Below are positions 63,720-64,000 of a stretch of 64,000 bases of DNA, piece after piece. The position numbers and the translations under genes are program-made. How positions within the stretch are numbered: position 1 is the first letter of the stretch; the number at the start of each line of letters is the position of its first letter. The DNA lies in NCBI RefSeq assembly GCF_003334255.1, contig NZ_QOWU01000007.1, one strand, 5' to 3'. The DNA is from Escherichia coli. Its GTDB lineage: Bacteria; Pseudomonadota; Gammaproteobacteria; Enterobacterales; Enterobacteriaceae. Below the pieces are notes generated by a model. The model was not told the DNA's origin, did no database searches, and worked only from the letters and a program-made list of their open reading frames with translations.

Positions 63720-63768
63720 GAAAATTATTTTAAATTTCCTCTTGTCAGGCCGGAATAACTCCCTATAA
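63720..63768 (+). promoter_or_regulatory. rRNA operon promoter P1 (rrnB-type) with upstream A/T-rich UP element
   Basis: agaaaattattttaaatttcct (UP), TTGTCA at 63741-63746, 16-bp spacer, TATAAT at 63763-63768, GC-rich discriminator GCGCCACC. Confidence 0.85.
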
Positions 63769-63861
63769 TGCGCCACCACTGACACGGAACAACGGCAAAC
63801 ACGCCGCCGGGTCAGCGGGGTTCTCCTGAGAACTCCGGCAGAGAAAGCAAAAATAAATGCT

Positions 63862-63889
63862 TGACTCTGTAGCGGGAAAGCGTATTATG
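63862..63889 (+). promoter_or_regulatory. rRNA operon promoter P2
   Basis: TTGACT at 63862-63867, 16-bp spacer, TATTAT at 63884-63889, followed by GCACACCCCGCGCCGCTG. Confidence 0.8.
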
Positions 63890-63924
63890 CACACCCCGCG
63901 CCGCTGAGAAAAAGCAAAGCGGCA

Positions 63925-63937
63925 CTGCTCTTTAACA
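63925..63937 (+). promoter_or_regulatory. boxA antitermination element of the rRNA leader
   Basis: TGCTCTTTAACAA, the canonical rrn boxA, in the leader; the window ends before the 16S start. Confidence 0.8.
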
Positions 63938-64000
63938 ATTTATCAGACAATCTGTGTGGGCACTCGAAGATACGGATTCTTAACGTCGCAAGACGAAAAA

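Follow-up and report, generated by a model that had tools for sequence, protein, structure and literature searches.

The right-hand end of the analysed stretch of Escherichia coli DNA (64,000 nucleotides, referred to as the window) almost certainly holds the upstream activating region, the tandem promoters P1 and P2, and the first 223 nt of the leader of the ribosomal RNA operon rrnB, located immediately 3' of murI. In the alignment with K-12 MG1655, 399 of 401 bases over positions 63600-64000 have been found to be the same as in the murI-rrsB intergenic DNA upstream of b3968, which bears out an earlier sequence-only reading that had taken the region for the start of an rrn operon, and of rrnB by its genomic context. 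No observation has spoken against this reading. The bases shared with K-12 rrnB comprise the Fis sites, the UP element, P1, the discriminator, the P2 hexamers, boxA, boxC and the murI flank. The two deviating positions carry A in the window and G in K-12, and are located in the P2 spacer (63879) and in the loop of the boxB hairpin (63916), leaving the hexamers, boxA and the hairpin stem untouched. All features are collected in Table 1; the start sites, Fis binding and regulation described below are those published for K-12, whose sequence is nearly the same.

The rrnB promoter and leader region is already known and ordinary, and is among the best-characterised regulatory regions in bacteria. 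Its recognition at this place is consequently of annotation value only, showing that rrnB begins at the right-hand edge of the window, and brings no new biology. As a warning to users of the sequence, a repeat with ~7 copies per genome takes up the final ~290 bases of the window.

Table 1. Positions of murI and of the promoter and leader elements of rrnB in the window.
Feature	Coordinates	Strand	Description
murI (glutamate racemase) CDS	62839..63696	+	ORF; stop TGA 63694-63696; annotated in identical genomes
Fis site III (predicted)	63628..63642	+	GAACAATTATTGCCC; centre 63635 = -143; inside murI coding sequence
Fis site II (predicted)	63669..63683	+	GCTCGAAAAACTGGC; centre 63676 = -102; inside murI coding sequence
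Fis site I (predicted)	63700..63714	+	GGTTGAATGTTGCGC; centre 63707 = -71; starts 4 nt after murI stop
UP element of P1	63719..63740	+	AGAAAATTATTTTAAATTTCCT; -59 to -38; 19/22 bases A/T
P1 core promoter	63742..63769	+	-35 TTGTCA 63742-63747; 16-nt spacer; -10 TATAAT 63764-63769
Discriminator and P1 start (predicted)	63770..63778	+	GCGCCACC 63770-63777, then A63778 = +1
Pre-rRNA 5' leader (external transcribed spacer)	63778..64000	+	P1 +1 to window end; 223/292 nt
P2 core promoter	63861..63888	+	-35 TTGACT 63861-63866; 16-nt spacer; -10 TATTAT 63883-63888
boxB-type hairpin	63900..63923	+	GCCGCU ... AGCGGC; 6-bp stem (RNA fold)
boxA	63926..63938	+	TGCTCTTTAACAA; single match in 64-kb window vs 0.03 expected
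Leader-trailer helix, 5' (leader) strand	63935..63982	+	partner strand directly 3' of 16S, outside window
boxC	63951..63960	+	TCTGTGTGGG; matches motif UCUGUGUGGG from PMC10250234

Promoters and upstream elements of the control region

Scanning with the sigma-70 consensus has assigned 11 of 12 consensus matches to the hexamers of P1, whose core is identical to that of K-12 rrnB P1, and 10 of 12 to those of P2, from which transcription presumably starts within the C run at 63894-63897. The -35 hexamers of the two promoters are separated by 119 nt, and this spacing corresponds to the tandem arrangement of rrn operons, in which P1 and P2 lie ~120 bp apart (PMC4696680). Directly upstream of the P1 -35 hexamer, an A+T-rich UP element has been located that is identical in rrnB, rrnA and rrnC of K-12 and coincides in composition and position with the UP element described for rrnB P1 at -60 to -40, where it is contacted by the C-terminal domains of the RNA polymerase alpha subunits (PMC7822876). 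The rrnB P1 discriminator has been described as a G+C-rich element between -8 and -1, and transcription as starting with ATP at a distance of 9 nt from the -10 element (PMC7822876). Discriminator (G or C at seven of eight bases), start spacing and an A at the start are all found in the window, and based on the published spacing the P1 start is predicted at A63778, 9 nt after the -10 hexamer. This placement is supported by the published position of the mature 16S 5' end at +293 of the P1 transcript (PMC3753927), since counting 292 nt onwards from 63778 leads to 64070, which is the exact start of 16S in genomes identical to the window.

Further upstream, three Fis sites are predicted from the positions published for K-12 rrnB P1, where they have been reported to be centred at -71, -102 and -143 (PMC2885671). 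Each of the corresponding 15-mers fits the Fis consensus GnnnRnnWnnYnnnC and is identical to its K-12 counterpart. The pattern is a loose one, matching 0.9% of window positions, and the evidence gains its weight from the coincidence at three pre-specified positions, for which a chance probability in the order of 1e-6 has been obtained, together with the identity to K-12. Regarding the expected overlap of the Fis sites with the 3' end of murI, the sequence-only reading was right for sites II and III and wrong for site I, which lies beyond the stop codon. Similarly, its boundaries of 63720-64000 for the control region do enclose P1, P2 and boxA, but the region truly begins near 63628 with Fis site III. 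Within the last ~70 bases of murI, coding sequence is thus overlaid by conserved sites for protein binding (Fis II and III), which the rrnB control region explains.

In the mechanism described for the K-12 operon, Fis dimers bound at -71, -102 and -143 and the UP element, through the alpha C-terminal domains, would together recruit sigma-70 RNA polymerase to P1. The non-optimal 16-nt spacer, a discriminator rich in G+C and the 9-nt start spacing would then lead to a short-lived open complex (PMC7822876), which would enable P1 to sense the concentration of initiating ATP as well as ppGpp/DksA (PMC7822876, PMC4696680), and owing to this short lifetime P1 would be the promoter that carries growth-rate and stringent control. 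Regulation of P1 by ppGpp/DksA, initiating NTPs and growth rate can accordingly be expected in the present strain on the grounds of its identity to the characterised K-12 promoter (PMC7822876, PMC4696680).

Leader RNA and the match to Ysr197

The transcript is predicted to run from P1 into the pre-rRNA leader, which from ~63926 to the window end has been found invariant across all seven K-12 rrn operons. An Rfam search has returned no SSU rRNA match in 60500-64000, and the earlier statement that no rRNA sequence lies inside the window holds for mature rRNA; it does not hold for the transcribed precursor, of which 223 nt (63778-64000) are included. The boxB, boxA and boxC elements follow P2 closely and in the order that has been reported (PMC10250234). 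A 6-bp boxB stem is formed in the centroid folds of both the window allele and the K-12 rrnB allele of base 63916, although neither folding energy stands out significantly from those of shuffled sequences (z = -1.0 and -1.3 for the two alleles), so that the hairpin is not demonstrated by folding energy alone. The boxA sequence, which had been recognised in the leader after P2 from the letters alone, is indeed present there, occurs once in the window, and is invariant in 7 of 7 K-12 rrn leaders. As RNA, boxA is bound by NusB/NusE and nucleates the rRNA antitermination complex (PMC10250234, PMC4807359), and the transcribed boxA, with boxB and boxC, would be expected to assemble NusB, NusE, NusA, NusG, S4 and SuhB on the polymerase to form this complex.

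RNase III has been reported to cut the P1 transcript at +175 and +180 (PMC3753927), and with +1 placed at 63778 these cuts map to 63952 and 63957, both within boxC, while the RNase E site at +227 maps to 64004, just past the window end. A leader-trailer helix has been described for 16S (PMC10250234), is required for 30S biogenesis, and serves as RNase III substrate (PMC4807359, PMC10250234, PMC3753927). Pairing of the leader strand (63935-63982) with the 16S trailer, taken from the 100%-matching locus of strain ATCC 8739 beyond the window, has yielded a duplex energy of -58.0 kcal/mol, compared with -20.6 +/- 3.0 kcal/mol for 200 shuffled trailers. In the cell, the boxC region would pair with the trailer in this way, and the resulting helix would be cut by RNase III at the two positions given above.

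A full-model match to the Rfam family RF02849 (Ysr197, Yersinia sRNA 197) has been obtained over 63695-63948 with 81.4 bits and an E-value of ~1e-19, which raises the alternative of a small regulatory RNA in its own right, homologous to Ysr197 and encoded here in addition to the rrn promoter and leader. In Y. pseudotuberculosis, Ysr197 has been reported to be growth-phase regulated, being abundant in the exponential phase and strongly repressed in the stationary phase (PMC4376681). Such a pattern is equally what one would expect for a fragment of an rrn leader, and the score stays below the gathering threshold of 167, so that the region does not qualify as a member of the family. Moreover, the upstream regions of all six other rrn operons of K-12 match the same model (78-145 bits), and we therefore take the match to reflect homology of rrn promoters and leaders. 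The hexamers of both promoters, the boxB hairpin and boxA all fall within the alignment. With the P1 -35 and -10 hexamers it takes in DNA that is untranscribed here, and it stops 4 nt short of the RNase III cut. A separate sRNA gene has been rejected on the basis of the sub-threshold score and the matches at all seven rrn regions, and the alternative is considered exceedingly improbable. Ysr197, which shares the P1 and P2 hexamers, the boxB-like hairpin and boxA with the window, rather seems to be what corresponds in Yersinia to the rrn promoter and leader, with no distinct gene behind it. We infer that the RF02849 family has been built on rrn promoter/leader DNA, which would explain why, in a review that counted all copies, Ysr197 came out as the 'sRNA' with the highest prevalence in bacterial genomes (PMC9029176).

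A more speculative thought, to which we attach very little likelihood, is that the leader fragment released by RNase III (from the P1 or P2 start to ~+175; 63778-63952), as the counterpart of Ysr197, could be more than a processing by-product and might persist and act in trans or as a regulatory RNA that the nucleoid retains, and that the strength of P2 or the function of the leader could be slightly changed by the bases at 63879 and 63916.

Assignment to rrnB among the seven rrn operons

The assignment to rrnB rests on the flanking genes, since between 63709, a position just upstream of the UP element, and 64000 no base separates the window from K-12 rrnC, and the promoters by themselves therefore do not tell which operon they belong to. 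Within the window, the gene order oxyR-sthA-fabR-yijD-trmA-btuB-murI upstream of the promoters matches that of annotated genomes including ATCC 8739. Among 5426 complete E. coli genomes, the 601 nt at 63400-64000 match every one, and the junction between murI and the promoters is covered to at least 80% in 5408. Each genome of the same set carries the promoter and leader segment itself, with a median of 7 occurrences, in agreement with the seven rrn operons.

The DNA beyond the window end has been read from genomes identical to the window, as the 16S gene itself lies outside. Strain C1 (NZ_CP195942.1) is 100% identical to window positions 44000-64000 in one piece. In it, murI precedes a 16S gene that starts 70 nt beyond the window end, and tRNA-Glu, 23S, 5S, murB and birA come next. 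ATCC 8739, identical over the last 601 nt, has the same layout with 16S at the same distance. At the expected downstream positions of the matching genome, Rfam has recovered SSU_rRNA_bacteria with 1577 bits and a tRNA. The annotation of rrnB in K-12 (rrsB, gltT, rrlB, rrfB, murB) describes the same layout. The sequence-only reading had named the operon rrnB from its location downstream of murI and had taken anything other than 16S rRNA downstream as a refutation; in the identical genomes the continuation is 16S, and the naming is supported by btuB-murI on the one side and by the tRNA-Glu spacer and murB-birA on the other.

As an alternative, the promoter could be that of rrnC, of rrnA or of an operon that is recombinant or hybrid, instead of that of rrnB. 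Indeed, the window carries from 63709 onwards both bases that are foreign to K-12 rrnB in the form of rrnC, the A at 63879 being the allele of rrnC, rrnH, rrnD and rrnE, and differs from the nearly identical rrnA only at 63879 and 63916. Upstream of ~63709, in contrast, the DNA of these two operons is unrelated to the window, with yieP adjoining rrnC and hemG adjoining rrnA in place of murI, so that the region of the distal Fis sites differs as well. The upstream neighbours of all six other K-12 rrn operons differ from murI, and the unique murI/btuB DNA flanks rrnB only. Together with the continuation of identical genomes through 16S, tRNA-Glu, 23S and 5S into murB, this leaves a negligible chance to an origin other than rrnB. 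Shared alleles would be the expected outcome of sequence homogenisation among rrn copies, and the identity of rrnB in the window to K-12 rrnC from 63709 is consistent with such gene conversion.

Motif scans and observations in the neighbouring DNA

The ~300 nt 3' of murI contain no plausible coding frame, as judged from reading 62400-64000 and the list of open reading frames. Although sigma-70-like matches are common in general (four sites in 2 kb against 2.1 expected in a simple scan), the idea that intergenic DNA has produced the hexamers of P1 and P2 and the boxA sequence by chance can be dismissed outright, since P1 and P2 are the only two matches to the tighter pattern TTGWCW-N16-TATWAT on either strand of the 64-kb window (mean of 0.04 in 100 shuffles, none of which reached two), boxA is unique in the window, the whole region is ~99.5% identical to the experimentally characterised K-12 control region, and 16S follows downstream in an identical genome. 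The promoters P1, with its UP element, and P2 accordingly lie where they had been pointed out from the letters alone, far beyond what chance would provide.

A simple scan has found no intrinsic terminator in 62000-64000, including the interval from the murI stop (63696) to P1 (0 against 2.5 expected in shuffles), so that transcripts of btuB-murI may continue into the control region of rrnB. Upstream of btuB, a cobalamin riboswitch (RF00174) has been detected at 60795-60984 on the + strand in full length with 87 bits; it is known and annotated in ATCC 8739. The genes btuB and murI overlap by 56 nt in different frames, from the annotated murI start at 62839 to the end of the btuB stop codon at 62894, and the longest murI open reading frame begins at an ATG at 62827, 12 nt before the annotated start.

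On a larger scale, most genomes that are 100% identical to 44000-64000 align in two pieces that span 19,878 bases on the record side and 20,001 on the query side, which implies a polymorphic insertion or deletion of ~123 nt somewhere in this interval. One record, NZ_AP022105.1, contains an ISEcp1-family transposase within its match to the same interval. Between ATCC 8739 and window positions 57000-64000, 26 mismatches have been counted, and 19 of the first 20 listed are concentrated at 57047-57989, in sthA, suggesting a local change of ancestry, in the form of a recombination mosaic, between sthA and the genes proximal to rrnB.
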